DNA of 64,000 nt from assembly GCA_004431415.1 (NCBI GenBank), contig QPMI01000176.1, positions 62,001 through 126,000 on the forward strand, in the 5' to 3' direction. The notes beneath the pieces are model-generated. The model ran no database searches and was not told the DNA's origin. It saw only the letters and a program-made list of their open reading frames with translations. Position numbers and translations under genes: made by a program. Positions 6,612 to 30,283 of this stretch are shown here, one piece after another. This DNA comes from Cyanophora paradoxa CCMP329. Its lineage: Eukaryota > Plantae > Glaucophyta. Positions within the stretch are counted from its first letter, which is position 1. Each line of letters opens with the position of its first letter.

Positions 6612-6637
6612 GAAAACAAACGCGAAAGTGCCTATAG

Positions 6638-7739: not shown

Positions 7740-7837
7740 AAACAGCTGTTGTAACGGGGCGGACCCCCCGAAAGTGCACCGCCACCCTCATAGTGCACGG
7801 CATGCGGCCTGCGGAGCGCGCGCGGTCTGGTGCGGCC

Positions 7838-8182: not shown

Positions 8183-8213
8183 CTAGTATGGTCTATATAT
8201 AAAAACAAAGATT

Positions 8214-9047: not shown

Positions 9048-9075
9048 TTTAGAAAACAGAAGATAAAACTTTCAC

Positions 9076-9924
9076 TCAAGGTATAGGATTTTCCGGATTG
9101 CCTTCCTCATACATATTATTCAGTGCTGGATCAACGTTCAGCCCTCTAGTAGCCACTGATGCAGCCACATCGGAGCGATAGCCGATGATTAGGATAGAGT
9201 ATCGGCCTATCGCAGTAGCATATAAATCGAAAAGGTGCCTTGTATTAATATTACGAACTACGTATCCCCGCCCAGCATGTCCAAGACCTTGCACAAAGAA
9301 CGTATACACATGCCCTATCTGGTCATTTTGATCCTGGCAGAGAGATTGTAATGCTTTAGGGATTTCTCTGTTTGAAAGCAACCTCTCACCATCCAGACCA
9401 TTTGGTGTACTTGAATTAGCTATGGTTATTTCAACTTCTACTAGAGCTTGTGCATAGGGAAGGTCACAGCAAGGTACATACATGCGAACTCGTTTACGAT
9501 TTTCGACATTCTCTACTGAAAAGTCTGGGACATCATTGATGGCAATCGATGATGATAGGCCCCCACTAACTCGGCAGGCTCCGGTAATAGCTGCTCCTCC
9601 GGAGCGCACAGTCAGGGCAGCAGTGTTTTGATCATAGTTTATGCTTCGAAGGTCAACACTATATGAGTCAACTCCTCCTGTTATGGGCTGGGAGAAATTT
9701 GCGTTCGTAACCAGTAATCGAGTTGTTTTGACAACCCCAGAGTTTTTATCTGCGCGTAATTCTTTACAGCGAATCACTGATCGCTGATCAAATGCATTAG
9801 TTGAGTTTGGACGCTCAGTGGACTCTAATCCAGCAATGGCATCGCTAACTTCATGCTGCCTCATATGGATTGCTGGAGAGCCCAGTGAGTAGATTGGTAA
9901 CTGGACTCGGTTGTACTCGGTCAT
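9076..9924 (-). CDS. Viral protein, 282 aa, putative fibre/virion-associated; paralog of 8214..9047
   Basis: Clean ATG ORF with full-length similarity to the adjacent ORF, including the C-terminal AT..G.Y.I....R[ST]DV.A. Confidence 0.7.
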   Translation of the reverse strand: MTEYNRVQLPIYSLGSPAIHMRQHEVSDAIAGLESTERPNSTNAFDQRSVIRCKELRADKNSGVVKTTRLLVTNANFSQPITGGVDSYSVDLRSINYDQNTAALTVRSGGAAITGACRVSGGLSSSIAINDVPDFSVENVENRKRVRMYVPCCDLPYAQALVEVEITIANSSTPNGLDGERLLSNREIPKALQSLCQDQNDQIGHVYTFFVQGLGHAGRGYVVRNINTRHLFDLYATAIGRYSILIIGYRSDVAASVATRGLNVDPALNNMYEEGNPENPIP

Positions 9925-9961
9925 TTAATAGAAACGAAAGAGAAAAAATAATGTAGCAACG

Positions 9962-10267
9962 TCAAGCTGGAGTGATCAGATTTGATCCGAGAGCTTGATA
10001 GATAGTGGACAGGTTATGAAGTGACATCATCATAGTTTTCAGGTTGGAGTCGAGCTCATTATATTTGCTGGCAGGATCACCATATGCCGATTGGGCAAGG
10101 ACGTTAACCAAGAGGTTTTTATATTCATGAACAACAGGGGACAGTTTGTTAGTTTGCTGAATCGTTTTTTCGACATTTTGTAGTGCGGCTACAAGTTTGA
10201 TAGTATCGAATGCAAGAGCGACAGGCTCAGAAGTAGTAGTGGTTCCACCAAGTGGATAGGTTGCCAT
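9962..10267 (-). CDS. Viral hypothetical protein, 101 aa, probably helical
   Basis: ATG lies 3 nt after the fibre stop (TAATAAATG); no recognisable motif. Confidence 0.7.
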   Translation of the reverse strand: MATYPLGGTTTTSEPVALAFDTIKLVAALQNVEKTIQQTNKLSPVVHEYKNLLVNVLAQSAYGDPASKYNELDSNLKTMMMSLHNLSTIYQALGSNLITPA

Positions 10268-10270
10268 TTA

Positions 10271-13200: not shown

Positions 13201-15634
13201 CTGCTTCAATTCCTTTTCGGTGTAAATAGTATTCACTTAATTGTAATCTTTCAGGGATGGTGTCACTCTGATAGAAACTAACCCCATAAAATCCATCACC
13301 ATTTACCACATCACCTGTCGATGCAAAACGTGGTTTTTCATCTATTTCGTCCCAATCGTGCCTGTGTGCAAAATCCGTAATATCTGCTTTGACATGTTCA
13401 TGTGCAAAATCCGTAATATCTGCTTTGACATGTTTGTGTGCAAAATCTGTGATCTGATCTTTGGTGTGAGTATGGGCAAAGTCTGTAATATCGGCTTTAA
13501 CATGTTCATGTGCGAAATCTGTTATTTGGTCTTTTGTATGAGTATGCGCAAAGTCTGTAATATCGGCTTTAACATGTTCATGTGCGAAATCTGTAATATC
13601 GGCTTTAACATGTTCATGTGCGAAATCCGTAATATCTGCTTTGACATGTTCATGTGCAAAATCCGTAATATCTGCTTTGACATGTTCATGGTCTTCTGGT
13701 GGGAATGTTTCGGGTTGATCTGGGATATTCTCCCATCTAAAATAATCTTCTGTTACCACTCTTGAAATATTTTCGTTGTGAATGTTTTTCGCTGCTGCTC
13801 TTTGATTGATTTCTAAAAGACCCTCAGGAACCCCACCATTATAATTTGTTTTTATCCATGCTACCTCACACTGTTTATAATCGTCACGATTTCCTAAAAG
13901 GGTTTCTGCTGCGAGTTGTTCACGACTGAATATAAGTTTTGGTCTTGATCCGTCCAAATCGCTAACATTTGTTACATTAATTTGTATAGTGGCGTTATGG
14001 TTTGCATAATTTACTGGATCAGATGGGAGAGGTGGCAAACCCATAGTCATCGGGATATCATCGGCGTAATAACTGGTTAGATAGATTCCTGGTTTATTCT
14101 CTTTAACTTCTACACCTCCACCTGCTGCGATCAATTCAATTCTTCTGGGAGGTCTAATATATATTTCGCCTTCCATTGTGGTGCCTGCATCAATTCCTTT
14201 TCGATTCAGGTAATATTCACTTAAAAGTAATCTTTGTTCGATGTTAATATTTTGGTAGAGACTCACACCATTTGTCCCATCAGTTAAAACATTACCTGTT
14301 GATGCAAAGGTAGGCTGTAAATCGATTTCGTCCCAATTATGCCTATGGTCTTCTGGTGGAAACTGCTCTGGTATTCCATCGATATCGCCCCAATCATGCC
14401 TATGGTCTGTGGGTGGAAATCTATCTGGTTTATTATCAATCTCGTCCCAATCATGTCTGTGTTCCTCCGGCGGAAAAGTCTCAGGTTTGTTCGTAATTGA
14501 TTCCCAGTCTACGGTGAACTCCAAGGGGAAGCAAATAGGATCAAAGCCGTCTGGAAGCAGCTGCTCATGGGGAATCACAGGCTGCTCGTACTCGAGTTCT
14601 TGAACATCTAAGCCATCAGGAAGTAACTGCTCTTCAGGCTCTGTGTACATTTCGAGTGGGAAAACTTCAATATCAGGCGGCAGGTATTCCTCATGTGGAT
14701 GCTTATAGGGTTCTATCACTGGACGATTCCTGACAGCCTCCCATGAAATAATATTTTGACCAAATGGGATTGTCTCATCGGCAACTCGCTCTCGACCTGG
14801 TCCATCCGGCGTTGGCGGCTTTGGTAGCCCTGGAAGAGGTGGTATAGGTGGTATAGGGACAATAGGTCCAAAGTAGTAGTTGAAAATGTTTATTATCTCC
14901 GGTTCAGTGATTACTTTTTTGCCGTCTTGGTAAATACTTGTTCCATGAATATTTCGCCACTGCCTGGTGCGAAGCCCTAGGTCATATCTATCATGCAATG
15001 CCGGGAGCAGGTGTCTGTCAGCTTCCATCAGGATCGAGCCAAAGGTGCATCCAGGAATATCTAACCTGGTAGCAGGCTCTGTATCAATTTGATTAACATC
15101 AAATCCGTATAAAATATTTGTTTCTCGTGCAGCTGTATAAAGTAAATCCCAGGGAAATGGTTGGATTTGCGATGCTAGCACTGATATTCCTGCGTCTTCA
15201 CCAAGGAGGATTCGCCCTGTAATTTGAGCAGCAGTCTTGTTTGTGATGGCATTGGATTCATCAATTAGACGTAGAGCTGATATATGGATCCCTCTATCAT
15301 TTTGAAGCCTAAATATTAATCTACCAGAATCATACTTAGAAACTGTGCCTGAGGAGGCAATGTGTAGGTGTCGTGGCAATGCCCTTGATCCGACTATTTC
15401 AGCCACATAATTCTCAGCTGGACCCAGACAAAATCTCTGTGCGATATTTGGGGCACCGACGTGTGAATTGCGCAGAATTAACGCAGCTGGACGATTAAAA
15501 GCGGTCTGGTGTATATCCTTGTCAGAATTGTAGTCAATTAGAGTGCTCCCGAATACACGGATATTTATAAGCCGATCATCCACGGTATCTGGAGCTTTAC
15601 GAAGTGGCACTGGCTTCTTCAAGATGTAGGACAT
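10271..15634 (-). CDS. Phage-like tail fibre, 1787 aa, with HxH repeats and a C-terminal peptidase S74 intramolecular chaperone
   Basis: C-terminal SDRRYKTDIKKI..ALSAIEKLEGVSF..GLIAQDVQQVIPEVV..LSLEYTGLIPVLIEAVKEL plus coiled coil; HRHxWxxIxxxPxxFPP and H[ETK]HxKxxITDFA repeats; internally repeated globular modules. Confidence 0.9.
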   Translation of the reverse strand: MSYILKKPVPLRKAPDTVDDRLINIRVFGSTLIDYNSDKDIHQTAFNRPAALILRNSHVGAPNIAQRFCLGPAENYVAEIVGSRALPRHLHIASSGTVSKYDSGRLIFRLQNDRGIHISALRLIDESNAITNKTAAQITGRILLGEDAGISVLASQIQPFPWDLLYTAARETNILYGFDVNQIDTEPATRLDIPGCTFGSILMEADRHLLPALHDRYDLGLRTRQWRNIHGTSIYQDGKKVITEPEIINIFNYYFGPIVPIPPIPPLPGLPKPPTPDGPGRERVADETIPFGQNIISWEAVRNRPVIEPYKHPHEEYLPPDIEVFPLEMYTEPEEQLLPDGLDVQELEYEQPVIPHEQLLPDGFDPICFPLEFTVDWESITNKPETFPPEEHRHDWDEIDNKPDRFPPTDHRHDWGDIDGIPEQFPPEDHRHNWDEIDLQPTFASTGNVLTDGTNGVSLYQNINIEQRLLLSEYYLNRKGIDAGTTMEGEIYIRPPRRIELIAAGGGVEVKENKPGIYLTSYYADDIPMTMGLPPLPSDPVNYANHNATIQINVTNVSDLDGSRPKLIFSREQLAAETLLGNRDDYKQCEVAWIKTNYNGGVPEGLLEINQRAAAKNIHNENISRVVTEDYFRWENIPDQPETFPPEDHEHVKADITDFAHEHVKADITDFAHEHVKADITDFAHEHVKADITDFAHTHTKDQITDFAHEHVKADITDFAHTHTKDQITDFAHKHVKADITDFAHEHVKADITDFAHRHDWDEIDEKPRFASTGDVVNGDGFYGVSFYQSDTIPERLQLSEYYLHRKGIEAGTTMEGELYIKQPTRTTLVAAGGDALIDTKPGIYLTSYYNADIPLTTGLPPLPSDPATYDDKDAILQVNVTDVSATDGSRPKIIFSRSKFNYAPLAGQPRDDHGKCEMAWIKTTSGGALEVNQRMAAKNLHNTTLSGVVPDDYLTNKGYLTTADLSSYATDAELATALANYLPLTGGTVTGTVNATTLQIGGTTIPKGYDFDQLDVISTDRSPNNWTVTWASRTGQNGCHTTPQNDEDCSGCWMRWLIPTGMKSFYIQHMPWYNCRYFDIYGQTTNGYQHFLKRVNAYQGIQQVNQDGTHNTILFVSINCEFYKYIYVQGRKGRIHLTGVFGWSRQRATDNELGMISWDNVFSKPDFAGTYATKAEVPNVLGDLLTVNSVDWHKSTDNIPRFWFGSGNTTYIRGYGNGEGVSIEFRNSGDTAILKSYDNGNLWVNNTLTASTINATTNLQINGNAVPKLHSNDGYVAGSSPYNYSGGWNFGYGSAWEPYFNYGGHAYNNEVDDQTSSAWIEYNIPDGLHTGSAFLTHLPWGNTRIFEIWGINRQGNAIFITTVNNYHPYAGSANDNHSGVNNVPIFLGNRFVRIRIQARIGRVHIMGISFMKIWVGHSYGGHTGYIHWNNVYSKPNIPTSYLSLTDVTNSIGNITGFDTWSGHGSYSLYYVGSWTGGWVPSYTNPIDGFYSNNVDDQTSSDYAQIEVPANMKTCHVQYMCWTNCRYFDIGGYRNGRWHHIMRVNCYQAVSNNYDSDWHDGLTWTSFHCDTFSHVRFVARKGRCHIGMIGWTKEKGRTAPANGFISWDNVFSKDERTIWATGTWITSSEGYSRIYFGSASTTYIRGHATTVVEFRNTWDTHVAFINDDGYMWVRNYLGQGSDRRYKTDIKKITDALSAIEKLEGVSFKRIGSEQDGTRLGLIAQDVQQVIPEVVRAKQDDGYLSLEYTGLIPVLIEAVKELSQKCKDLTQTCENLQSQIDQIKNVAV
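13367..13690 (-). repeat. Nine tandem 36-bp coding repeats (HEHVKADITDFA / HTHTKDQITDFA)
   Basis: Counted directly in the fibre translation and the DNA. Confidence 0.95.
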
Positions 15635-15658
15635 TTTTATATAGGCCTCCTTTTAAAA

Positions 15659-17143
15659 ATGAAGGTGATTCTCTCGTTATCAGGTGGAGGTGCTCGTGGC
15701 ATAATTATAACCAGAATTCTGCAACGGATTGAGGCAATCACTGGCAAAGCGATTCCACAACTGTTTGACTTCGTTGCAGGAACGAGTACAGGCGCTATCA
15801 TAGCAGCTGGTTTGGCTATACCATCAACTCCGGGCTCTGTTCTCGCTTACCGATATTCTGCGGGCGATATCTTGAGTCTCTACCAGACAAACCTGCCAGT
15901 AATATTTGCGAATCCTAGATCGCTAACGAGCCTGCTTGCAGGAAGCCGTTATGATGCAAACCCTCTGGAGTCAGTGCTACTAGACGTTGCCCAGGACTAC
16001 ACAATTGCAGAATCAACAAAAGACATATTAATCACAGCATTTGATACAGTTCGGATGCAGCCCGTAGTTTTCACTAAGGATGGGCCATACTCAAGCACCC
16101 TGATTCGTGATGCAGTTAGAGCATCTTCTGCAGCACCTACATTCTTTCCACCGAAGGTGCTAGGAGACAAGAACCTTGTTGATGGGGCCATCGCCTGTTT
16201 AAATAACCCCTCGGTTGCAGCACTCAGCCATGCCAGCAAAATTTACGATGCAGAAGATCCAATTGTTCTTGTGAGCATCAGCTGCGGAGAGGTCCAAGCT
16301 AGCGAGCAATTGACTGCAGGTTTTTCAAATGCGGAGACGTCAGGCTGGGGCGCCCTGGGCTGGATCCTATCCCTCTCAGGCAGCCCAATTATTTCTATGC
16401 TAATGGCTGGGAGCGAGCTGGAATCCCACTTTCAAATGCAGGAGCTGCTTCCAGTTGATGCAGATAGGAATCTAACTAGGTACTGGCGCTTAAGTGTTCC
16501 GCTGCCAGCTGCAGTCATGAGCAAGCTTGATGATGCATCCCCCTCTAATATTTCTTATTTGATTTCCACAACTGACTTATGGCTGAAACAAACTGAAATA
16601 AATGCTAAAATAAATGCACTCTGCAGCTTTCTATTGGCGAACTACGACCTAGTGAACGATGAGAGACTTATCATATCGTCTACCTTAACAGTTGAGCCTC
16701 CATTTGATGTCAACTGGTTTATAATTCCAGATGCGAATATCACAAGCAACGACTTCGAGGAATTGCACCCACCTTCTCACGTGCGACCCAACTCAACAGG
16801 GTTTCAGGGTGGCACTTTACCTAATCCCTGGATCAAAGTCGAGTTTCCCAAGCCTTTTGAGCTACATCAAATCATTATGTATGGGCCAGCCTTTGCTGCC
16901 GGAGTCCTATTTAATTTCAGCATTCTGACCAACTTAGGATATTTACGAGACGGGTCACTATTTGAGAATACGGTCCTAGCAAATGTGCTTGCTGCAAACC
17001 CATCTATGACAGGCTTTGATCTAATGCATAGTGACTCGCATTTGATCACCCCACAGGTTTATAACTATGTGCAAATTATAACAAACGAATTTATAAATGT
17101 GAATGCGTTCCGGCTTGATTTCCGGGGACGTTACCTAAACTAA
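15659..17143 (+). CDS. Patatin-like phospholipase, 494 aa, with an extra C-terminal beta-rich domain
   Basis: LSLSGGGARG oxyanion loop, GTSTG nucleophile elbow, ASSAAPTFF and LVDGA catalytic Asp. The C-terminal ~150 aa contain NPWIKVEFPKPFELHQIIMYG (discoidin/galactose-binding-like, tentative). Confidence 0.92.
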   Translation: MKVILSLSGGGARGIIITRILQRIEAITGKAIPQLFDFVAGTSTGAIIAAGLAIPSTPGSVLAYRYSAGDILSLYQTNLPVIFANPRSLTSLLAGSRYDANPLESVLLDVAQDYTIAESTKDILITAFDTVRMQPVVFTKDGPYSSTLIRDAVRASSAAPTFFPPKVLGDKNLVDGAIACLNNPSVAALSHASKIYDAEDPIVLVSISCGEVQASEQLTAGFSNAETSGWGALGWILSLSGSPIISMLMAGSELESHFQMQELLPVDADRNLTRYWRLSVPLPAAVMSKLDDASPSNISYLISTTDLWLKQTEINAKINALCSFLLANYDLVNDERLIISSTLTVEPPFDVNWFIIPDANITSNDFEELHPPSHVRPNSTGFQGGTLPNPWIKVEFPKPFELHQIIMYGPAFAAGVLFNFSILTNLGYLRDGSLFENTVLANVLAANPSMTGFDLMHSDSHLITPQVYNYVQIITNEFINVNAFRLDFRGRYLN

Positions 17144-18022
17144 AAATTGCAGTTCACCAGACCAAGGCAGGCCATTCAGAGAGACGTCATCACCATCTCT
17201 GTCTACAATGCGCAGTCGCAAGGAAGTCAGCACAAGACGCTCTTCGATGGGGATCCATTCTTCATTTTCCTGATTTATATAAACGAACTTGCCAACGTCC
17301 TGGCTCATTTGAATTCGAGCGAGCCCGTAGTTACACATTGATTTAGCCCCACGGCAAAGCTTTGAAGCAAACGGCCGTAGCTCTTCGCAGACAAGGAAGA
17401 GGTACTGGTCGCTGTTCATGTCGATTATCTTTGGAAATTCGACCGCGTAACCAAGTGGCTCACTCCGCATTCTTCCGGTGAAATCAATGCCGTACTCAGG
17501 GTGAGCAGGTGTAACTGGAATGCCAGCAACCTCGAGATACCGCTCAGCTGCAGTTAGTGGTCTTTGCCCCCCTTCAAGCACAATAGGAGACAGCTGGAGG
17601 GGCTCATTTCGGTTCAGCCCAAGCAGATTCGATAGAGCTTTGAACTGGCAGGTCAGTGTGCAGGAACGGCTGCAATAGGCAGACATTTTCAACGTCTCTG
17701 GGTCTCGAAACAATTTGAAATATGCGATTGAGATCCCTTCTAGCCTGATATTAAACGATAGGCCAAAGTTATAAATATCTGTTTCGCCCAGATTTGCAGT
17801 AGTAATTATGCCAGGCTCAAAAACCGCCAGATTTTCTGTCCCAATGTAGGGAAAGGTGATCGAAAGATACTCATCTTTAATGCTGGTGTAAAGGCTGTTT
17901 GCGAACTCACACTGGGTAAGTCGAACAGCAACTGGATTGATTATAGGTTCATTGATTTCGAGCACAAAGTTTGCCTCTGAATCGATTGGCCTTCTGTCTC
18001 TGCTGTCAAAGGTAAGCCGCAT
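17135..18022 (-). CDS. Minor capsid (penton-like) protein 1, 295 aa
   Basis: N-terminal FDSRDR..F.L...I.N..AVRL..CEF.N and C-terminal YLFL...L..LARI..LTSLRLRIVDRDG..V.LNG..WS..L.F, the pattern of single-jelly-roll pentons in PLVs and NCLDVs. Confidence 0.78.
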   Translation of the reverse strand: MRLTFDSRDRRPIDSEANFVLEINEPIINPVAVRLTQCEFANSLYTSIKDEYLSITFPYIGTENLAVFEPGIITTANLGETDIYNFGLSFNIRLEGISIAYFKLFRDPETLKMSAYCSRSCTLTCQFKALSNLLGLNRNEPLQLSPIVLEGGQRPLTAAERYLEVAGIPVTPAHPEYGIDFTGRMRSEPLGYAVEFPKIIDMNSDQYLFLVCEELRPFASKLCRGAKSMCNYGLARIQMSQDVGKFVYINQENEEWIPIEERLVLTSLRLRIVDRDGDDVSLNGLPWSGELQFLV

Positions 18023-18049
18023 TTTTATTCTCTAACTGATATAAAAAAG

Positions 18050-19006
18050 ATGCCTACGGACTACGTCTGCATTGCAAGTCACCAAGCGGAGGAGCTGACA
18101 TCCACCTCGAAATTTAAAGTAAGACTGCCTAAAGTTTATCAGGATGTGAAAGCCGTGCGCTTGGTATCAGCTGAGATCCCCAACACAATGAGCACAATTG
18201 ATGTACTCGATCCAGCAGAGGATTTGGTCTTTGACACCTACATATATTGGTGCAAATATGATCCTACTAATGAAGGACCCGACCCACCTCAGGCCGGCTT
18301 TGGAGCGTGGAATAACATTGCAATTCCACCTGGAAATTACGACGTCACCTCGCTTGTGACAGAGATAAACGAAAGGTTGACGGGAACAGGTATCACGTGC
18401 ACGTATAATTCAGCGATCAAATTAATAGGGTTCACAGCTAACTTCGAGTTCTTTATTGCTCTGATGTTGCCAACGAACCAGGGTGGGCGGGAAGTCAGAA
18501 ACTACCAGGCCGTTGCAAGGGCTCAGCGAACTGCAAAGCTTCTAGGGCTGCGATCAATTCTACCGATTCGGTCAAAGACATTATCTATAAATACTGAATA
18601 TATAGCAGGCGCTTATGAGCCTGATGTCACTCCCGATGATCATGTGCTCCTACGCATTCCTGAAATTGGTGACCTTGTCAGTATGCCCAATACTTCAATA
18701 CCTGGCTTCTTTGCCAAAATTAGCATTCCAAACAGCCTTCGTCCAGGCGAGATAGCATACTTTGATTCAACTGAAGCAACTCCTTTGTACAAGTATGTTT
18801 ATTCAAAGCTGGACCTCTACTCTGTGACTATTGAGATTTACGATTTTATGCAGCGAATCGCTGATTTAAATGGAGCTCCTGTGTCATTTATTCTCGAAAT
18901 TCGTTATGGTCCAGACGAACCCAATGGTGATGTTGTCTACGAGCTCGCAAAGCTTCAGCTCCAGAAAAGATCGAAGACATATCCTTGGATCAATTCGTCA
19001 AACTGA
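18050..19006 (+). CDS. Minor capsid (penton-like) protein 2, 318 aa
   Basis: FKVRLPKVYQDVKAVRLVSAEIPNT, IPPGNYDVTSLVTEIN, HVLLRIPE, FFAKI and VTIEIYD...IADLNGAPVSFILEI; lies directly upstream of the MCP. Confidence 0.82.
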   Translation: MPTDYVCIASHQAEELTSTSKFKVRLPKVYQDVKAVRLVSAEIPNTMSTIDVLDPAEDLVFDTYIYWCKYDPTNEGPDPPQAGFGAWNNIAIPPGNYDVTSLVTEINERLTGTGITCTYNSAIKLIGFTANFEFFIALMLPTNQGGREVRNYQAVARAQRTAKLLGLRSILPIRSKTLSINTEYIAGAYEPDVTPDDHVLLRIPEIGDLVSMPNTSIPGFFAKISIPNSLRPGEIAYFDSTEATPLYKYVYSKLDLYSVTIEIYDFMQRIADLNGAPVSFILEIRYGPDEPNGDVVYELAKLQLQKRSKTYPWINSSN

Positions 19007-19081
19007 GCTAAGCTCGCGGCACGCAAGCAAGCCTTGGCGAAGCGCCCAAATTATTTTCTTTCACTGCAATTATATAAATCG

Positions 19082-20468
19082 ATGGATGTTACTCAAAATT
19101 TGCAGCGGCTCGGCCTCAAGGAGCTCCTGACAACTCCGCAGGAAGCTAAGGACTTTTTCATGAACAATGAGCTTATGTTAGGTCTAACCAGCCAAACAAA
19201 GCCTGTGCGTGTTGTTGTCAACCCAAGCAATGACTATGGAGACTGCTTCGGAAAGAGGGTTACTTATTTCCTGCCCCGGTACAATTTCCTTCAGGGCTCG
19301 AACTGCAGTTCACCCTTCCAGAGTTGACTGCATTTACTGGTGACACTGACCTGGTTCGCACTGGTTATTTGCGATCGGTTGGTGCTCTTGTAAAGCGAAT
19401 CGAAATCAAATATGCTTCCTACAGCTACATTGTCCCCGAGGACTGGCTTGTTCACAGCGCTCTGATTTTCAATGATGATGCTCAGCTCAAAAAGAAGTAC
19501 CGATCCGGTGGCTGGCTCCATGGAACACCACCTCAGGGGAGCAATCGCGCTGGAGGTATTTTCAGTGTAAAGATCCCCTGCCCCTGGGAGGGCTCAGTGC
19601 TTCCAATTGGTGCGCTATCGGGCGAGGTGTCTGTGGAGGTTTGGTTCCGTGACCGTGCCAGGGCTTCGTTGAGACCAGCTATGGTGGTAGGTTTGTAGCA
19701 GAATATGCCGCAAACGGTGATGCCTCTAAAGATGATGGACTCGGGAGCGTTGGAGCTGCCGCTGCATCCCCTGCAAACATTGGCCAGAATATAACCCCCA
19801 ATGTCCTCACTGTCACTCCTGCCAATCCCGAGCTATCGAATCCAAAGATTATAGCTCACTGCATCAACGTTGATGAGGCTACTTTTGCACAGGTTATTGA
19901 AAAAGTCAAATCGTCTGGAATCGCCATTCCTGCCACTGAGGTTGGCTGGGTTGATGCTGACTCGATCACCTATGCAGGGGCTGGTGCACCTACCCGGATT
20001 AATCTGTCGCAGATCAGTGGGCTCTGCTATGGCCTTTTTGTTAGCATTCGCAAGCAGACAAATATGAACCAAACTGATGGAAAACACAGTGTCCTTAAAA
20101 CTGAGGCCAATGCTCGTGATATAACTATTTCCTGCGAATTGAATGGCCAGCGACTTTATTCTAACGAGCCTGTGCCACTCTTGCAAGGTGCTGAGCTCAT
20201 TGCTGATGTGTTCAAGTGCTCGAATCTCGACGCGCCTCTTAACAGATATGTTCTGAGTGGATTGCCATTTTGCATTAGTGGGGATAAATCGATCCGAAAT
20301 GCAGCTCAAACTGGTTTCGTGGATCTCACCAACAGCAGCAGCTGCTTCCTGAATATCATGAATCCTGCCGCTTACGATGCAAACAACAAGATTTACGTCC
20401 AGGTTCGCGCTCTCCTGCACACTGTCCTAATTGTTGATGCTGCGGGCCTTCGCAAGGTGAACCTCTAG
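19082..20468 (+). CDS. Probable major capsid protein (double jelly roll), ~462 aa when two -1 frame changes are repaired
   Basis: Three overlapping frames join: MDVTQ..YFLPRYNFLQG|LELQFTLPEL..VKRIEIKY..VLPIGALSGEVSVEVWFRD..|GFVETSY.., open through 20064 to ..TGFVDLTN..IYVQVRALLHTVLIVDAAGLRKVNL. Size, beta-strand pattern and position between penton and ATPase fit an MCP. Confidence 0.8.
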
Positions 20469-20530
20469 TCGAATTGTCGTCAGACAAGCTGCCTTGGCTG
20501 CGCCTGCGAATCTCGGTAGTTAATTTTTTG

Positions 20531-21271
20531 ATGGATCAGTCTCAAGAGCTCGCACAGTTCCAGCCGGGAGACATGAGGGTCCCTTTCAAAGCCCTATTCA
20601 TTTCAAAGTCTAATAGCGGCAAATCTTTCTACTGCACCAAACATCTGCTTCGACTGCTGTATCCAAAGATCAATCGCGTCGTAGTGTTTACGGCCACCAA
20701 ATTCAATGGTGAATACTCTGCAATAACTAAAGAGCTTTACGACGATTTTCAGCCCGCCATAGTTGCTGAAATCATTGATTCACAGCGAAATTTGATTGAA
20801 AACAAAAAGAAAGCGCCGCAGATATTGCTTGTATTGGATGATCTCGTTGCTGCCTCTGAAACTGTTGATCTGCGAAATAGCAAGACCGTTAATCGACTTT
20901 TTACACAAGGTCGTCATTTTAATATCAGTACGATTCTTATGACCCAAAAGCTTACAGCATTGAGTCAATCTATAAGATCGAACTCCGACTATTGTTTTTT
21001 CTTCAGTTACTCTAATCATACTGAACTCGAGGCAATTTATAGAGAGTTTAGTCATCTCCCGAAAGACGAATTTATTGCTTTGTTCGAAACCTGGGCGCAT
21101 GATTATCAGTGCCTAGTCCTTGATGGGACCAAGTACGATACGGCCTGGTACGTTGATAAAGCTGTTGAAGATAAGAGTTTTCGCTTTACAAAATGGCTTA
21201 AGAATGAAGAAGAGCCTAAGAAAGAATCGCCTGTTATCTATAAAAAGAGGCGTTTTAAAATCTTATCTTAA
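20531..21271 (+). CDS. A32-like (FtsK/HerA superfamily) genome packaging ATPase
   Basis: Walker A SKSNSGKS, Walker B LLVLDD and the A32-type motif LFTQGRHFNISTILMTQ..IRSNSDY. First ATG is at 20531. Confidence 0.93.
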   Translation: MDQSQELAQFQPGDMRVPFKALFISKSNSGKSFYCTKHLLRLLYPKINRVVVFTATKFNGEYSAITKELYDDFQPAIVAEIIDSQRNLIENKKKAPQILLVLDDLVAASETVDLRNSKTVNRLFTQGRHFNISTILMTQKLTALSQSIRSNSDYCFFFSYSNHTELEAIYREFSHLPKDEFIALFETWAHDYQCLVLDGTKYDTAWYVDKAVEDKSFRFTKWLKNEEEPKKESPVIYKKRRFKILS

Positions 21272-21280
21272 GAACAGAAG

Positions 21281-21910
21281 ATGGCAAGAGGCATTCCTAA
21301 GAAGGGATATCGTGAAAGACGCAAGGTCAATGTTGTTGAACCACTAGTCGAAAGTGGTGCAACAGAGGGCGCAGCTGTAGCTAATCCTAGCGGGGAGCTC
21401 GCAAGTGACCCCAAACTAAACGCACCCGTTGCTAAAACAATTGCCTCCGCAGCAGCTAACGCCAGTGCAATTGACGACCGACAAAGCCAGGTCAAAATTG
21501 TAAACGAAATGCAGTCTGATATTGATGATGATGCTGCTAGAATTTTACAAGCGATGGCGTCTGAAGCGCGGTATTCAGGGCCTAAAATCAAGACAGCAAC
21601 GGTGTCAAAAAGTCAGATTGACGAGTTGGCTGCCAAATTGCGTGATCTAGAAGCGAGGTCGGCTAATATCGAATCATATGTAAAAGATAAGCAAGAAAGA
21701 GCTAAGATCCGCGAGATGTTGCGAAGCGAAATGTTTAAGCACAGATCTATGGATGTACCAGATTTGCGCTATTTGAAAAATGAAAAAGCTAAAGCCGAGC
21801 AATCGCTTGACTCTGCCGAAGTAAAACCAGCAACTCCAAATGTTTTTGAACCCAATTCTACGAGCTCGCAGATGAAGAATGCAATGGGTGGGAGAAGGAT
21901 TCGGTTGTAA
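21281..21910 (+). CDS. Viral hypothetical protein, 209 aa, basic N-terminus and coiled coil
   Basis: ATG ORF 9 nt after the ATPase stop; heptad-like IDELAAKLRDLEARSANIESYV. Confidence 0.75.
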   Translation: MARGIPKKGYRERRKVNVVEPLVESGATEGAAVANPSGELASDPKLNAPVAKTIASAAANASAIDDRQSQVKIVNEMQSDIDDDAARILQAMASEARYSGPKIKTATVSKSQIDELAAKLRDLEARSANIESYVKDKQERAKIREMLRSEMFKHRSMDVPDLRYLKNEKAKAEQSLDSAEVKPATPNVFEPNSTSSQMKNAMGGRRIRL

Positions 21911-22433
21911 AATTCAGACGCAGAAATGGACGGTCCTCAGCTGAAGTATGCTGAAGGGCATAGGTGTCTCTGGCTTTAGCAGCAGCTTCAGCAGTAGTAA
22001 AGTATCCGATGTGTTTCAGACGACCATTTATCCCATAATGCGCCTGCCATTTTTCACGCTGCTGATGGAACGATACACCAATGAAACCGCTGGTGTTTGT
22101 GACCCGCCGATTCTGGTTTAAACTCTGCTGGCGCTTTGTCGCAAGTCGCAGGTTCTCGCGACGATCATCGAGTTTGTTTAGATTTATGTGATCGACAGTT
22201 AAACCGTTCTCCAACTCGCCGCTGATAAAATTATGCAACAACACGGTCTTCCCATTTATTTTGGTGGCAGCATATCCATTGGTATTTAACCACCAGCGAA
22301 ATCCAAGCACGCGCTGAGAATCATCCTGTGAAACAAGCGCATAAGCGACAACAATTCCGTTTCTGCCATTCCTACGACCAGTAATTGGAATCAACGCAAC
22401 ACCTTCAGGGACATCTGGAATTGTGACCTCCAT
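21858..22433 (-). CDS. HNH-AP2 endonuclease, 191 aa
   Basis: LLHNFI..VDHINLNKLDDRRENLRLAT (HNH) followed by NTSGFIGVSF..KWQA..KHIGYFTTAEAAAKARD (AP2). Confidence 0.92.
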   Translation of the reverse strand: MEVTIPDVPEGVALIPITGRRNGRNGIVVAYALVSQDDSQRVLGFRWWLNTNGYAATKINGKTVLLHNFISGELENGLTVDHINLNKLDDRRENLRLATKRQQSLNQNRRVTNTSGFIGVSFHQQREKWQAHYGINGRLKHIGYFTTAEAAAKARDTYALQHTSAEDRPFLRLNFTTESFSHPLHSSSASS

Positions 22434-22487
22434 TTGGCGCAGCCGAGCTGCTTGTCTGCGACTTTACAATCTGAGATTGAGATATCT

Positions 22488-22724
22488 TTAAGGTAAATCA
22501 AAATCGGGCAGATCCTCTCCTTCTACAGTTGCTCGATCATTCGATTGACAAATTTCAAAGGCCCGCTGCAATTCCCTTTTATCGTATTCACGGAGATGTT
22601 CCCAAGACATTAACCATTCGGCGTATTTCGGATCGGTTAAAACAACTTTCAGATGAGTTTCGCCACGGTATTTTCCAAATCGAATTGTTCCTGAGGCGCA
22701 GCGTCGCTGCTCGTCTGCGACCAT
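22488..22724 (-). CDS. Small FGKY-motif protein (DUF3820 / ExoX C-terminal-like), 78 aa
   Basis: IRFGKYRGET..V...DPKYAEWL motif; TATATAA upstream. Confidence 0.75.
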   Translation of the reverse strand: MVADEQRRCASGTIRFGKYRGETHLKVVLTDPKYAEWLMSWEHLREYDKRELQRAFEICQSNDRATVEGEDLPDFDLP

Positions 22725-22825
22725 TTTGCTTTATATAAACCGCTGCGATTTAATTTTTCGATTTGAACGCGCCATAAACGTTTCTCGAATTTCTTTCCTA
22801 TATATCAATCACAGACCCACTCATA

Positions 22826-23143
22826 ATGGACAGTGCTGAATTCACGACTGCTTCCCGTCCACGAGGCAGGCCTCGCAAGAATTTTGAGAAGCCTGCGCAC
22901 ATACGTACTGAGGTTACGCCAGAGATACTTGCAGAGAGACGCAAAAGACGTGCAGAGCTGCAGCGAAAGCGATACCATGAAAATCAAGATTACCGGCAGC
23001 GACAGATTGCTGTCTCCCGTCAATATAACCTTGCACACCCTGAACGAAAACTGGACAACGACCGAAAATACCGAGAGCGAAGGCGCACTGAAATTAGGTC
23101 GCTAATTGCGGCGGGCATAGTTTCCAGCGACCTTACTGCCTAA
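22826..23143 (+). CDS. AT-hook basic DNA-binding protein, 105 aa
   Basis: RPRGRPRK AT-hook followed by an Arg/Lys-rich helical region. Confidence 0.72.
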   Translation: MDSAEFTTASRPRGRPRKNFEKPAHIRTEVTPEILAERRKRRAELQRKRYHENQDYRQRQIAVSRQYNLAHPERKLDNDRKYRERRRTEIRSLIAAGIVSSDLTA

Positions 23144-24031
23144 CCGCAGCGAAGGCTCCCCTGCAACCTCTAGTTTCTTGAGCTCACGAGCTTGTCGACT
23201 TTGTCCGCTATACTTTTTCGTTTCAATGAGACCCTCGCGCCGTAACTGTTGCTCTTGCTTTGCTTTGGCCGCAGCTCGTTCTATTTTTGACTGATTCGGA
23301 AGCTGTCTCGGGGCTCGAATTTCTGAAGGCTTGATTCTACGGCTTAATATCTGTCCCTCTTTGGTTGCGACCCTTATTCGGTTCCTGTCCTGCCCCACGA
23401 CTGTGTACGTCTCCTTGCTCCGTTTCGTAGTTCCCTTTGCAAAGATGCTGCTCTTAGGCTCCAGTATCTGCACCTCAGTCCCTGGCTTTGGTAGATTCAA
23501 CGCGTCTCTCTCAATGTCGTTCTGTCGTTGACGCACCTGGTGCAGCTGGGCAGCGACCTGCGGGTGATCTCGCATCCAGGCTGGTGAATACTCTCTGCCA
23601 AAAGAGCTGTGTTTTGTTTGGTTGTATGCCTTGATCAAAGCAGGCAGCCGGGAGAGAAAATTCGGCGACCCTCGTTCCTCTGTGTCTGCCTGAATCAGGG
23701 CTCGCAACGTCCGTGCGAATCGATCGATGATTGCTAGCTTGTCGCCTTTCGATATGTGATCATCCTTAGCGACGTCAGTGTGCATCGAAAATGAATTCTC
23801 TTCGGCCATTGCCCGCACAGCAGCCGTATTAAAGCCATTGTCGCCCGAAAAACCCCAGATCCCCGGCAGCTGAGCGATGAATTTCGGAATCTGTTTAGCA
23901 TCTTCAAGCTTTCTGACAACGGCGAATCGAGTTGCAATCTCAATCGCTGCAAATAGTCGAAAACGTCCTATGAAAAGTATGTCGACTTGATATGCCCCTG
24001 GTGGAGCAGTAATTTTAAATGAGGGCGCCAT
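23102..24031 (-). CDS. Retroviral-type (rve) integrase, 309 aa
   Basis: YQVDILF (D1), FSGDNGF (D2), IIDRFARTLR (third acidic residue), YNQTKHSS..SP and C-terminal G..V.I...FAKG..S.E.YTV; consistent with the 6-bp TSD. Confidence 0.9.
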   Translation of the reverse strand: MAPSFKITAPPGAYQVDILFIGRFRLFAAIEIATRFAVVRKLEDAKQIPKFIAQLPGIWGFSGDNGFNTAAVRAMAEENSFSMHTDVAKDDHISKGDKLAIIDRFARTLRALIQADTEERGSPNFLSRLPALIKAYNQTKHSSFGREYSPAWMRDHPQVAAQLHQVRQRQNDIERDALNLPKPGTEVQILEPKSSIFAKGTTKRSKETYTVVGQDRNRIRVATKEGQILSRRIKPSEIRAPRQLPNQSKIERAAAKAKQEQQLRREGLIETKKYSGQSRQARELKKLEVAGEPSLRLGSKVAGNYARRN

Positions 24032-27000
24032 TAGTTATTTGAAAGATTTTTAAAGTGACCTATCGCCCTGGTGTTCACACCATCCTCGCACAGGAATCGC
24101 TTGGTATCAAGCGGGTGCAGGGCTTGCTTTGATGTCCGCTGTAGCCAGATCTGGTGCTGCTTCGATCTGAAGCCGAGAATCCCCTCTACGTTGCATGATT
24201 TGCCCCCAAAGATGCAGTCGTAGTATCGCTCTCGTGTCAGCGAGCTGCTGAACGTCTTGTTAACGCCCTTGCACTTGTGCACTTCTGATTCCTCTGTGCT
24301 CATATAGTACGATTTCGGTCGGTTCGCGATCCACTCAAGCATTTGCCTGCCGCCACACTCGTCCTTGAACAGCCCGGGAACCTTGCCCATCGATCGTAGT
24401 CGCTGCACTTCAGCTGCTGGCATCCCCTCGAAGAACGGGTGACTCGTAGGGTATTCACTGACATCTAGCTCGCATTTGATTTTGCGAAGGTCCTCGTATA
24501 AATTTTCGGTCTCAATCTGAATTATGAGACTGTCTGTATCTGTTCCAAGTAGCTTAAGCCGCTGGCCCCAGAGCGGTTTGAGCACCTGGTAGTAAAACCG
24601 ATACATGTGCAGCTTTGACAAATCAAGGATTGCGAATCCACAGTAGATCGGTTTGTTGAGTGTGTATTCGCTCTTTCGCTTATTTACGTACACCAAGTTC
24701 TCGGCATAGACAGCGACCTGTCTCAAGCGATTTGGCTCTGTGTTGATTTTCGCCAGTCGTTCTCCTGATGTCACAAGCTCGGAATTGCAGTGCTTGCGCA
24801 CATTCTCCATCGTTTTCCCAAACACCGCATTATTTAGTAGCTTGTAGAGATCTTTTTCATACGGGAATTCCGCCTGCTTTCGCTTCATAGTATTCAAATC
24901 AATGTAGCTCTCAAGCCATGCACTTTGCTCGTACGAAAGCATTCTGTGTATTTTGGTAACAACCATCCCCATCGACACATAAAACTGCAACACTCGTGCG
25001 TCCACTACGTAATTCTTCTTCGGCAGCAAGTTTGGAACTAGCTTTGGCGTTCTCTCGATTCCACTAAGCTTTTCGTTTTCAATCGATTCTTGTTGTTTTG
25101 CCGACAGGTGCTCTTTTGATACGCACATGCGCTCAGGAGCTAGCGGGTAATCGCTGAAATAATCATGCAGCTCTTCAGGACAATGCATGTCAACCTCCAG
25201 AGAAAAACCCCTTGAACCATGAACATCAAGGTCTGTGATATACAGTTTAGGATCAGTAATACCACTGACGTCCTCCCATTTGAAGTCCCCTGTCGGTAGT
25301 TTTTGTTTCATAGAAAGCCCATAAAGGTTGTTCGCATCGAGGTACAGTAACCAGCCCTGCTTTTTTCTGTGACCCACGATGTACTTATCAATCCAGGCAT
25401 TATTAGCTCGAGCATATCTTTTTGATATCATAGAGATTCCTCCACGGATCCCTTTCTCAATAAAGCGGTGCATATCCTCCTGCCCTCCGTGGAACAGCTC
25501 CAGTTGCTGGCCGGTGTGTTTCAAAGCTGCTTGCCATGAGAACCCAGGAATGCTCATAAAGTAGCTGGGGTCCAGCTTGTACGTCTCCATACACGTGTCC
25601 CGGTAGTTTTCAAAGACGTCTGCTAGTAAAGCTATGTCTGTCTTCATGTACTCCATTGTATAATCAGCCATTGTCCTGCAACCAAGCTCACGCCAGACCG
25701 ACTGAGCGTGGGCATAATCATCCCGAGAGCACTTCGACTGCTTTAGCTCGTTGTAAAATTGGCGGCGCCCTGGTAGTGATGTCTCTGCAAGACGATCCCA
25801 GCCAGTAATGTACTTGTATGGATAGACACCCTTGCGCGTCATTAGTTTGAACCGTGTCTCATCCTCATGCAGTGCACGCGTGATTTTCTTTTTCTCATCA
25901 GGTACTGCAGCCGCAAGGCTATCGAGACTGCCCTGCAGGTGCTGAGCAGAGTCACGGAAAACGTAAATGCCGTATGTGAACTGTGAAATGCGCTCGCTGT
26001 TCTGAAACACCTGGTCAAACTTCGTTGACAGTAACTCACGAGGACGTAGTGTGCGCTCAAGCCGCTTCCTTGCATTTTTCGCATGATCTGCGCTCAGCTC
26101 ACGCCCTGCGTATTTGGCTTGAAACTGGCGCTCAACCTCGGCTCTGAATGCATTTTCTGCGACTTTCCGCCGGTTATAGCCTGCTGCCAGAGCCCTCACT
26201 AATAGATGAAAGTCAAATCCTCGGCCATTGTGAAAGAAGATTGGCACAGCGGCAGCTTTTGCTCGTCGCCTGTTGCAGGCCCTGCATGCCGCTCCAAGGT
26301 ACTGCCCAGAATCATGGCAATGATCACGATGTTTATCTTTGCCTCCTTTGAACTCGCTTCCACACATATAGCACGTTTCTGCTGCCTGAAAGGAGCGCTC
26401 TTGCGCCTGCGTAATCTGCATCGGCGCTTCCTCCTCCAAAATTCCCTTAAACTGCGGCTCCTTTTCATCGAGCCAAGCAATAAATGCCTCTGCAGACTCC
26501 TCAGTTGGGCTGCCCATATGCGAGAACCAAAAATGCTCCTGTCGCCTCGGCTCTGAATTTTCAACGCTGTCTGCAGTTGCATTCGTCCCTTGATTTTGTC
26601 CCTTGTTTACTACGACTAAGCAGCCGATCGAAGCTATCGCGTGGACTCCTAGCTGCTTCGTCTTTGCTGGACTCTCGGTCTGCAAAACAGGTAGAGTCAT
26701 TGTTTCCGAGTCAGCATATCCAACAAGCCTTTGCCGAATCGTCTTCTCGAAGCTGTTGAATTTTATAAAGTGCTCGCCCTTTTCGGAAGCACGTCCCTGG
26801 CGTGCTCATCTCGATCAAGGCACCGGTCGTATTTAAGATGATTCTGAAAGGCCTCGTCTGAGCCAAAGCCGCACTGGCAGGCCAAGCAATAGTGCTTCGC
26901 ATTCGACCCATGCTTTCCAAACAGTCGCGATATGTTCTTTATCCACAAATAATGTCCCACATCATTCCCGTCGCCTGCTGGCACGTACAGTATCGGTATA

Positions 27001-28073
27001 GCATCCGTTGCTGCGCTAATGTGGATCGGAACGATGTCTTGCTTGTCTAGCGCAGTCGTGTAGACGCAGAGCTTAACATTATTCGCACACTCAAATTTGC
27101 TGAACATTTTCGAATCGAGTGGCGTCGGATACGTGAGCATTGTACAATCTAGCGATGCCTCATGCTGCCGATAGCTTCCTGCATGCCTCGAATCCACCCC
27201 TGGGGCCAGCGGATTGCGCGCTGCGAGGACAGCATATTTAAAGCACTCGTTGTTTGGTGCATTGATATTGATCAAGGCCTGCTTGAGTGCAAGCCAGCTC
27301 GGAAGTACAAACCCGCGTCCGCGGCCGCCCATACGTCTGAAGTATCTAATCACGGTAAAGCGTAGCTTAATCCACGTCTCGAAGGCGGAAGAATCACGGC
27401 TCTTTTCCTGCGCAATAGTATCTAGCTCTTCCAGCTGTGAGCGGATCGTCTCAACAACGTCTGAGCCTGGGAGTATGCGGTAAAATTTCCTGTGCTCAAT
27501 CACTACTGCAAGCGCTGAGTCTTCGTTAGGCTTGCGATAGAGTCCGACTCCTGAGACCTGCAAAGCTATGCCCATTCGATCCTGACTTGCTAATTCTTGC
27601 TGCACGCTCGCAAACGCCACTGCGCCTGCTCTGAACCTCGCATTATTTTCGAGCTGCGCCTGCATCGACGTGACTCGGCCTGTTCCACGTGAGGGCCGGT
27701 ACTCCCAGTCAGCGTATGTCCCGTTCAGCGCTGTTCGTGTCGTCACTGTGCCGTCCTCCTCTGCAATTTCAGTTTCGCTGAACTCGCTCACGCTCGGATC
27801 GGGCAGCTCTGAAAATCCTGCTACAATCCCCTCAGCAATAGCAAGCTCTAGCCGTGCAGCTGCAACTGGTCTCGGCGGCCTCGGTACTGTTGACAGCTCG
27901 TTCAAAAGTGATGCGTATTTTTGTAGTGTCGGCAGTCGCGTGCGTGAGCCACTCGCACTGATGCGCTGCAGTTTGTTTCTGAATTGCCCATGAATAAACC
28001 TGCGATTGTACAAAACCTCGGCCTGGCCTGCTATCTGCTCTTTGAGCCGCGCGATCTCAAACCGTCGCTCCAT
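24031..28073 (-). CDS. Protein-primed family B DNA polymerase, ~1347 aa when one -1 frame change near 26780 is repaired
   Basis: Motifs YLDANNLYG, KLLNNAVFGK and GTDTDS; exonuclease GYADSE (just upstream of ATG 26700, same frame) and FFHNGRGFDFH; Endo-VII-like CYMC..DHCH..G.Y.GAAC..CN. The 436-aa upstream ORF (LININAPNNECFKYAV..HYLWIKNISRL..CLAC) is the expected N-terminal part. Confidence 0.95.
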
Positions 28074-28220
28074 TTAACAATAGCACTCCAAAAGATTTTC
28101 AGAGAAAGCGCGCAACCAACCGCTCGTTCCTATAGGGCGGTGCGATTCCTTTATAACATGTCACTGAGGCACATTGTGTGGTAGATCGCAGCTGGTGCTG
28201 CTTGGAAAACTGATAGCTGA

Positions 28221-29055
28221 GTTGGCGCTCTTGCGGCGGCGATGTAAAAGGATACGCAAATGCATTTAAATTCGAATTCTAGTAGCGCTTATAACACTAC
28301 AGTAAGCAGTCTTAGAAGGCATGACGTTTTGACCCCGTAAACCGCGGTTCCTCGCGACTGAGATCGAATTGGACCAAACCGCTAAGTATGCTACAGTTTT
28401 ATGATCTATATGTACGAAATCCGCTGCGATCGTGTTCAGGCGCAGCAGCGTTGCTGAGATTCTTAATCGTCGGGTTTGACGACTAAAATGTATGGCGGCT
28501 TGACCTCAGCACAGAAGCGCACAGGGCGCCGGCCAAAGCGTACGCATGCTTAGTATGATGCGAAAGAACGATAAAACAAGCCTCCAGCGCTGGGCGTCGC
28601 AGCAGTTCCGAGCTTTTGAACGTTTTGCCCCGAGACGTTCACCCTAGCCGGCGTGAGCTTGACGGCTTGGTCTCCGGCTCGGTCTCCGGGATCCGGCTTG
28701 GATCCGGCTTGGATCCGGCTTGAGCTTGGCGGACGTGACGCGCGCCGAAAGGACGAGTCTGGAAGCTTCCCGGACGTGACGGCCTGGAAGTTTAGGAAGC
28801 TTCTCCGTTCTATAAAGTGTGTCTCGCGCCGGCCCCGCGCATTCGAAATCTCACTCTCTCAACACCACGCTGGATCCTAAGCAGCCGCGGCAGTTCAAGA
28901 CTCCCGAGAGGAAGCTAGAACAGAATCGGCGCTACAAGAAGTCGGAGTTGGGCAAAGCTGCGAGACAGCGGGAGAACGCGAAGCACAGGGCTAGAACCGC
29001 TGCCGCAAAAGCGATAGCTATGTCGTTGCGTACAGATCTAGAGAAGAGCTTGCTT
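28221..29055 (-). repeat. Right inner diverged inverted repeat (partner 6750-7739)
   Basis: Block-wise reverse-complement similarity to the left arm, from GTTGGCGCTCTTGCGGCGG to AGAGAAGAGCTTGCTT. Confidence 0.88.
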
Positions 29056-29082
29056 GCAGAGGCGACCTACGAGCACGGACGC

Positions 29083-29685
29083 ATGGCGACGGACGCGCAG
29101 GATCCGGACGCGCCTTCAGCCCTCGGGAAGCGGGCGCGCGAGGCAAACAATGCCGATGCTCTCCGCAAGGAGCTCGCGGACATCAAAGCAAAGCTCGCTA
29201 AACAGGAGCAGCGCAATGATTGTGACCGCATTGATGCTGAAATAAGGCAGGCGATTGCAGCTGCTCGTGATGGCTTCAAAGAGCAGCACCTACACTTTCT
29301 CTTCAACCTACGCCGTGATTTGATGGTATGCCACCGACCGCCTGGCAGTTTAACGCTATCAAATGCCAGCTACACCGCCAGGCAACACGCGAGTCCGCGG
29401 GGTTCGCGACGAACGCGAAGATCTGGACCATGTACAACAAACACTGGACAGAGCTCCTTAAGCTCGTGCGTACCACTTGTTACATGGCTTTCAGTTATGT
29501 TCAGCGGTCCATAACCTGCGCAGCATCGACTCTACGAGGAAGCCGACACGGATCCGAAGGCCAATGCGGAGGCCGAGGCGGAGGCAGAGGCCGAGGCAGA
29601 GGCCGAGGCGGAGGCCGAGGCAGAGGCCGAGGCGGAGGCCGAGGCGGAGGCCGAGGCGGAGGCCGAAATGGAGGCCGATACGTAG
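29083..29685 (+). CDS. Three-exon viral terminal gene: coiled-coil protein ending in (Glu-Ala)n, 162 aa (183 aa from ATG 29020)
   Basis: Exons 29083-29325, 29382-29465 and 29524-29685; introns GTATGC..TTAAC..CGCCAG (56 nt) and GTGCGT..ATAAC..GCGCAG (58 nt). Splicing gives one open frame ..NLRRDLM-ATRESAGF..TELLKL-HRLYEEADTDPKANAEAEAE..EMEADT*. Confidence 0.7.
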
Positions 29686-29700
29686 ATCTAGACCGACGCA

Positions 29701-30248
29701 TCTCCCGAGGCCGCACCAGACCGCTCTGGGGGCCCCTACCGCTTGGGAGGTTGCCCCTGGTCGCAGACAAGCAGCGACGCTGCGCCAAGCGCCTAGATAG
29801 AGCTCGCCCGCGCTGTGCCTCACGTTCGCTCCAGACTGTAAACACGCCCAGCTAGTGCTGAACCCGTTTCCTCAGTTAGCTTCGCTGTACACATCATTAT
29901 CGCATAGCTAGCGCTGAACGTGTTTCCTCAGTTAGCTTCTCTGTACACATTAATATCGTCTAGCCTATTCTGCTTCGTTGCTATGCAGACCGCGCTCAAG
30001 GGGGGCCGCGCTCCTCTTCGTCTATTCTAGTTGTCAGCACTGTCTTGAATAGACATGAGCTATTGCTAGGCTTTGACCTAGGGAAAAGGCCGGCAGACGT
30101 AACAAGAGAGCGGGGTAGACGTAACGAGAGAGCGGGGTTGAAGGGAGAGTGGGGTGGACGCTAGGGCTGGTGCAGCAAGCGAGGGGGTGAGGGGATGGGG
30201 GTGGCGGAGAGGGGTGGGCCACCGTGGTCGGCTCTCTCTCATTTTTTT
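29701..30248 (-). repeat. Right terminal inverted repeat, 548 bp
   Basis: Ends GGTCGGCTCTCTCTCATTTTTTT; reverse complement of 6064-6611. Confidence 0.96.
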
Positions 30249-30254: not shown

Positions 30255-30283
30255 TGAATTGAAAAGCGTGAAATAAACAATTT

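Follow-up and report, generated by a model that had tools for sequence, protein, structure and literature searches.

The window analysed here, a 64,000-nucleotide stretch of DNA, contains an integrated Polinton-like virus of about 24 kb (6064..30248), a low-GC island (0.38-0.59) within the GC-rich DNA of its protist host. The element has TIRs of 548 nt (6064-6611 and 29701-30248) with 1 mismatch between them, is flanked by a 6-bp target-site duplication, and carries a viral gene set; the host flanks hold intron-dense genes of a flagellated protist. From the start of pPolB to the right TIR runs a subterminal slot (28167..29700) that is replaced by other sequence in variants of the element, and has a GC content of 0.57 (vs 0.43-0.50). 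The gene described here lies within this slot, on the forward strand.

The Polinton-like virus

Pfam searches identify the element's protein-primed B-family polymerase (pPolB; DNA_pol_B_2, E 2.9e-14), a packaging ATPase (Pox_A32, E 1.6e-9), a patatin, an S74-chaperone fibre and an HNH nuclease. The C-terminal piece of a double jelly-roll MCP reaches a Capsid_NCLDV cluster with an Atlas score of 0.97, a score of low recognition value. An integrase-like ORF (23102-24031) is probably an rve-like integrase; it has no direct Pfam match, and its three homologs (E about 1e-20) match rve only at E 0.004-0.009, below the cut-off. This ORF lacks about 55 N-terminal residues found in the three homologs, and the missing space is taken up by the end of pPolB. 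An adenovirus-like maturation cysteine protease, as expected of a Polinton sensu stricto or a virophage, is absent from the 18 + 11 proteins scanned, a search that a divergent copy could escape. Related loci were not found with pPolB as query, and the ATPase has no homologs at E 1e-10. The patatin gene adjoins that of the fibre-like protein (1787 aa, 10271-15634), which combines tandem copies of a 12-residue repeat with a long duplication inside the protein and ends in a Peptidase_S74 chaperone domain.

A first-pass annotation of this DNA described all core viral genes as intronless. None of them needs an intron, with the qualification that MCP and pPolB are both frameshifted in this assembly. 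The MCP gene (19082-20468) is broken near 19290 and 19660, and a 47-nt GT-AG candidate (19655-19701) overlaps the second break, where a one-base indel looks likelier. The pPolB frameshift (26779) is missing from contigs of all four DNA runs aligned, and is therefore an assembly error or particular to this copy. The element looks young and active, given a single difference between its 548-nt TIRs and the purifying selection on pPolB. Direct repeats of 165 nt (5894-6058 and 30271-30435, 95% identity) bracket it, with an (AT)65 run following; the insertion therefore went into a host repeat.

Structure of the terminal gene

A TATA box (TATAAA, 28811..28816; TATAGA at the matching left-end place) precedes a predicted transcription start near 28841. 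The first ATG, at 29020, opens exon 1 (29020..29325), which encodes the end of a long helix, a linker containing KRAR – which we take to be a possible nuclear signal – and a predicted coiled-coil helix. Predicted intron 1 (29326..29381, GTAT...CCAG) is 56 nt long; exon 2 (29382..29465) has 28 codons in a shifted genomic frame, with a GC3 of 0.82; and predicted intron 2 (29466..29523, GTGC...GCAG) is 58 nt long and contains the TAA of the unspliced frame. Both introns are phase 0. Exon 3 (29524..29685) encodes an acidic (EA)n tail and the stop codon.

The joined frame from ATG 29020 has one stop only (29683-29685), 15 nt short of the right TIR, which would supply the 3′ UTR. The first-pass reading of two GT-AG introns and three exons joined in phase, ending just outside the TIR, thus stands as a reading of the frames; its 162-aa product does not, as a recount from the ATG gives 183 aa. 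The gene had also been reported as missed by the ORF list, which is correct for the spliced form, but 29020-29514 is listed as an unspliced 164-aa ORF. Codons of the (EA)n tract had been said to vary only at wobble positions. Alanine wobble does run through most of the tract (17 GAG, 9 GCC, 5 GCG and 3 GCA codons in 29569-29682), but its degenerate end adds GAA, ATG, GAT and ACG codons; the pattern is modest evidence, because a few mutations followed by expansion could yield the same one. Retention of intron 2 also keeps an open frame (29382-29855), giving an RGG-rich tail, a 259-aa product and a stop inside the TIR; in the repeat of this interval codon bias prefers the acidic frame over the RGG-rich one.

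The frame is open from 28816, and the 50 codons upstream of ATG 29020 are coding-like (28870-29019, p 0.0004), forming a basic-helix region (28867..29019) recognized by its open frame and codon bias. An upstream ATG exon was ruled out, as no upstream exon chain starting with ATG exists at the right end (0 chains). The basic helix consequently needs ACG 28867 or CTG 28870 as its start, or is a vestige: the region would have to be either non-AUG-started coding sequence or untranslated. Both codons have a purine at -3, as in five host starts, and a non-AUG start including the basic helix would give a product of 233 aa.

Several other readings of the locus were rejected. Coding in 28221-28619 was ruled out by substitutions spread 22/20/22 over the codon positions, and a 175-aa shadow ORF at 29328 by the loss of its ATG in variant contigs. 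Ribosomal frameshifting would require two opposite shifts, with no canonical slippery site seen by eye, and was likewise ruled out; an RNA family at the locus was rejected.

Evidence for splicing

We consider it quite probable that the gene is spliced at both predicted introns. The host reference comprises 47 introns curated by eye, themselves predictions, the automatic gene parser being imperfect; they are 47-86 nt long (median 64), with 44 ending in GCAG and 30 beginning with GTGC. GC-AG introns look common in the host, with four among the 47 (51649, 51829, 53399 and 31852). The two introns had been called host-like in size and consensus: their sizes fit the host range, but the consensus was overstated. 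On a host PWM the intron-1 donor scores lower than any of the 47 host donors and donor 2 ranks close to the lowest of them, acceptor 2 is at the host median, and only loose branch-like words are present. The host set is 82% GC and so penalises these introns, which are 50-57% GC. By splice sites alone, a score this high or higher is reached by 62 candidates in the element, a count that includes both introns and one overlapping variant.

Reading-frame preference sets the two introns apart. Under a codon model trained on three host genes, the preferred frame runs f0, f2, f0 across them: exons 1 and 3 favour the frame of ATG 29020, whereas the score of exon 2 is 0.94 when read in the shifted frame but -1.49 unspliced (p 0.0013; reached by 0 of 130 non-coding windows). 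The exon-2 signal has p 0.002 and 0.016 with separate training sets, and p 0.11 when the gene's own exon 1 is used. Combining coding and splice scores, the two-intron parse ranks first among 2690 stop-free parses, and on coding score alone the six best parses are all two-intron, from donor 29326. Frame-switching with host-like coding flanks occurs at two of the element's 284 candidate introns, exactly these two, and a viral codon model over the element yields five other, weaker cases. Dinucleotide shuffles of the middle region gave a stop-free two-intron parse in 18 of 4000 trials and one with an equally good exon in 1 of 4000, under a rule fixed after the data were seen. Eight one-intron parses also exist, and intron 1, read in the exon-2 frame, itself contains no stop and looks mildly coding (0.49, p 0.11).

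No introner-type repeats were seen, there being no likeness between the two introns or to the rest of the window. A search of a sequencing-run index found no host RNA run containing the stretch. Six marine RNA runs had a small share of its words, which does not count as evidence, and the one aligned gave a single chance-like 38-nt piece with 6 mismatches.

Promoter, left-end paralog and a repeated motif

Two GAAGCTTC dyads (at 28762 and 28796, spanning 28762..28803), which presumably resemble heat-shock elements, lie upstream of the TATA box. Five of the six copies in 64 kb fall within the two terminal promoters (0.83 expected); GAAnnTTC has no window-wide enrichment (12 vs 14 expected), and the clustering is limited to the exact 8-mer. 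The terminal genes also differ from the internal genes in their leaders: over the 30 nt preceding the start, AT content has a median of 0.73 in 15 internal genes and is 0.37-0.53 in the two terminal ones, HNH (0.37) and the ATPase (0.57) being the internal exceptions. A promoter-pattern search of viral contigs gave no match.

The second terminal gene, on the reverse strand (6516..6977), is a paralog (43.6% over 101 aa, E 6e-15). It has a matching promoter layout, an ATG-started basic helix and a Gly/Ala linker, then enters the TIR, and is without the coiled coil and the introns; the basic helices of the two paralogs are separated by 6- and 12-nt indels. An older inverted repeat, about 84% identical (6830-7739 and 28221-28987), lies inside the near-perfect TIRs and suggests that the TIR once held the gene's promoter and start.

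A two-part motif of 23-24 bp is present in five copies with at most one mismatch, at 6548(-), 20481(+), 22458(-), 22717(-) and 29764(+), the last at 29764-29786. Each TIR holds one of these sites; two more precede the starts of the ATPase and HNH genes, and the fifth is where a 78-aa ORF starts. A weaker copy precedes MCP (19020), and there are 0 copies in 40 kb of host flank. Two of the three internal ORFs with the motif are those with leaders that are not AT-rich. The motif could be an operator, a promoter or a 3′-end signal.

Sister variants and selection

Fifteen sequencing runs of one organism matched, 14 of them with about 0.8 of the words, and the source sample is possibly included. Four DNA runs were aligned, and we counted variants rather than copies because depth is not copy number. 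Across these runs 29330-29518 shows one substitution and no indel; the in-frame TAA at 29512 is therefore real, and the frame switches cannot be put down to an assembly error. A joint from 28166 to 29701 is present in three of the four, with a shorter-sided joint in the fourth.

Searching one run for variant contigs at 80% likeness gave 11 records, with 8 pieces listed. One sister variant continues through intron 1 and reads GTAC at donor 1, a typical donor (PWM 8.9 vs 2.4). A second one follows exon 1 as far as 29328, departs after the donor GTA and reads GTACG; in the exon-2 frame its unaligned end runs into a stop four codons later, and it would rejoin at the TIR, to which it is linked by equal depth. 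The donor change in the sisters also removes the ATG of the shadow ORF at 29328. A variant at 29519, near acceptor 2, keeps GCAG, and exon 2 is without change among the sister pieces listed. One more contig enters the alignment at 29127, and in it an in-frame ATG follows a Gly/Ala-like linker. Among the 8 pieces listed from the 11 contigs at 80%, nothing points to a copy of the gene in the host genome.

Sister changes in exon 1 comprise 1 synonymous and 8 non-synonymous codons, none of which makes a stop, and fit neutrality (p 0.70). In pPolB, 14 of 16 listed changes, the best-supported subset, are synonymous and 2 non-synonymous (Fisher p 0.0003 vs exon 1). The left and right paralogs have a dN/dS of 1.17, on 57 codons. 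Neither the exon-1 sister changes nor the left/right comparison shows any sign of purifying selection on the gene, which speaks against a function under tight conservation; rapid adaptation and gradual decay are indistinguishable from these data.

The predicted protein

The only long homology query is 28870-29325, comprising exon 1 and the upstream part. It has no homologs among word-index proteins, 1.84 billion representatives, viral contigs or metagenome contigs, and no match in Pfam or PHROGs; an Atlas search gave a best score of 0.82, a lead at most. The single-sequence model of this region (pLDDT 71, pTM 0.30) is all-helical, with helices at residues 12-75, 84-134 and 139-151, and a fold search with it gave no match. 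DNA binding by the protein finds no support in any Pfam, PHROG, fold or sequence match. The second helix has a heptad pattern, though a short and rather indistinct one. The first 50 residues (from 28870) include 16 K/R and exon 3 has 23 D/E in 53. Among the genes of the element, this one comes closest to the host in codon use, with a GC3 of 0.67 vs 0.82-0.97 in three host genes.

Discussion

The spliced terminal gene is likely a real feature, and its architecture fits a regulator of the provirus stage. Our leading reading, which we hold tentatively and short of even confidence, is that it is an orphan accessory gene, transcribed and spliced by the host, whose product is a predicted nuclear regulator of that stage. 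The gene occupies a swappable slot beside the TIR of the integrated virus, host RNA polymerase II would read it from the TATA promoter, and the transcript would be spliced at the two host-size introns. The product – a basic helix, possible nuclear signal, coiled coil and acidic tail, as in a transcription regulator – would be imported into the nucleus and may act on the element's own DNA, with the 23-bp motif as the best candidate target. Since splicing takes place in the nucleus, activity of the gene would fall in the integrated or nuclear state of the virus, and presumably apart from the core genes with AT-rich leaders. The first-pass proposal of a gene that needs nuclear Pol II and splicing is well supported by the frame switching, the sister variants and the promoter contrast, each of which is read from DNA. 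Weighing against a regulator are the weak splice sites on the host PWM, a basic helix without an ATG on the right, the lack of any sign of purifying selection or matching host RNA run, and a link between protein and motif that consists of co-occurrence in one element.

The first-pass annotation had offered a captured host gene as an alternative, and a form of this is fairly unlikely: a gene fragment of the host, or of a former host, captured with its introns and fused to a viral basic-helix module. The slot adjoins the TIR and is GC-rich and variable with predicted introns, as in Mavericks; exon 2 has host-like codons; and mosaic sisters swap the parts before 29127 and after 29328. Capture as such, however, has no positive support. 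The long query has no homolog in the word index or the 1.84 billion representatives, no sign of a host-genome copy was seen among the contig pieces listed at 80%, the N-terminal part has its paralog at the element's left end, the variant contigs join element sequence rather than host sequence, and GC3 falls below that of the three host genes.

It is unlikely, in our estimation, that a once real spliced gene is now decaying or neutral and passively carried in the slot. The mostly non-synonymous sister changes, with dN/dS near 1, would be expected of such a gene, as would the basic helix without an ATG, the weak donor 1 of this copy and the lack of any matching host RNA run; but none of the nine changed exon-1 codons gives a stop, no indel is listed within this variant's exons, and the element's TIRs differ at 1 of 548 bases with pPolB under purifying selection.

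That the gene encodes a host-expressed defence or exclusion protein, aimed at related Polinton-like viruses or a giant virus instead of regulating the genome that carries it, seems to us quite improbable. A fast-changing, swappable gene with a host-type promoter may resemble conflict genes, and Polinton-like viruses are described as antiviral in protists in the accessible part of one account (PMC12220804), but no domain or partner points to defence, and a basic helix with an acidic tail would suggest nucleic-acid or transcription roles.

Very doubtful is the fullest elaboration of the regulator reading, a eukaryotic counterpart of the phage lysogeny switch. Here a spliced, stress-inducible, host-transcribed regulator would bind a 23-bp operator in both TIRs and before early genes, the slot would be an immunity-group cassette, and the non-AUG start and intron-2 retention would tune the product, retention swapping the acidic tail for the RGG-rich one (259 aa).

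Least probable is that there is no splicing, in which case the locus would be the unspliced ORF of 164 aa, or else a pseudogene whose two frameshifts compensate each other, and the GT-AG pairs would be there by chance; the 62 candidates equal on splice sites alone, the stop-free and mildly coding-like intron 1, the eight one-intron parses and the lack of any matching host RNA run would allow it, but exon 2 scores -1.49 in the unspliced frame, the architecture recurs in 1 of 4000 shuffles, and one sister diverges at the donor and, in the exon-2 frame, reaches a stop four codons later.

A host-transcribed, spliced regulator would bear on the question of how integrated Polinton-like viruses stay dormant and awaken. 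If it is confirmed, work on that question would have two splice junctions, a promoter of host type whose dyads resemble stress elements, and a possible operator to start from.

In bZIP-type transcription factors a basic helix is followed by a coiled coil, and the basic region has N-x7-R/K spacing. The layout here is alike (basic helix, predicted coiled coil, acidic tail), an analogy of the 'works like' kind only; there is no Pfam match, the N-x7-R/K spacing is absent by eye, and a linker parts the basic region from the coil.

We found no published case of a protist Polinton-like virus with a spliced orphan gene at its end, in a literature search covering main texts and few subscription papers. 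A large survey, in its accessible text, calls Polinton-like virus genes with prokaryotic tools and states that introns are absent (PMC10120064); calling of this kind would everywhere overlook or cut short a terminal gene that is spliced. The accessible part of a cryptophyte survey mentions only group I introns, and the accessible text of two other preprints has no comparable introns. Polinton-like elements of dinoflagellates are described, in the text available, as carrying introners mostly gained after integration (PMC12166617), and so share with the element here spliceosomal-type introns, predicted in our case, inside integrated protist elements. Those introners are repeated and transposon-derived, whereas the two introns here are mutually unlike and confined to one gene.

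Nematode Mavericks have, as far as the available text of Widen et al. describes them (10.1101/2022.07.12.499685), a GC-rich, poorly conserved, intron-bearing region by the TIR, and intronless core genes. That cargo region is like the slot here in being TIR-adjacent, high in GC and variable, with introns (predicted in our case) and modular swapping. On the same description, the Maverick cargo consists of recognisable protease and kinase families in animals and lies beside the integrase, whereas the slot here is about 1.5 kb long, holds a protist orphan, and adjoins pPolB with a paralog at the opposite end.

The accessible account of a punuivirus of Chlamydomonas (10.64898/2026.10.09.758095) reports latency genes that carry host-like spliceosomal introns and lytic genes with AT-rich promoters; marks of a latency gene of this type are expression ahead of virion production and 6mA close to its start. 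The element here would have a similar two-part genome of intron-bearing, host-style and AT-rich-promoter genes. The punuivirus, as described there, is a 617-kb giant virus with 61 latency genes identified by RNA-seq, whereas the present case is one gene predicted from sequence alone in 24 kb; if it is confirmed, the 'host-style latent, AT-rich lytic' layout would be shared by a giant virus and an element of 24 kb.
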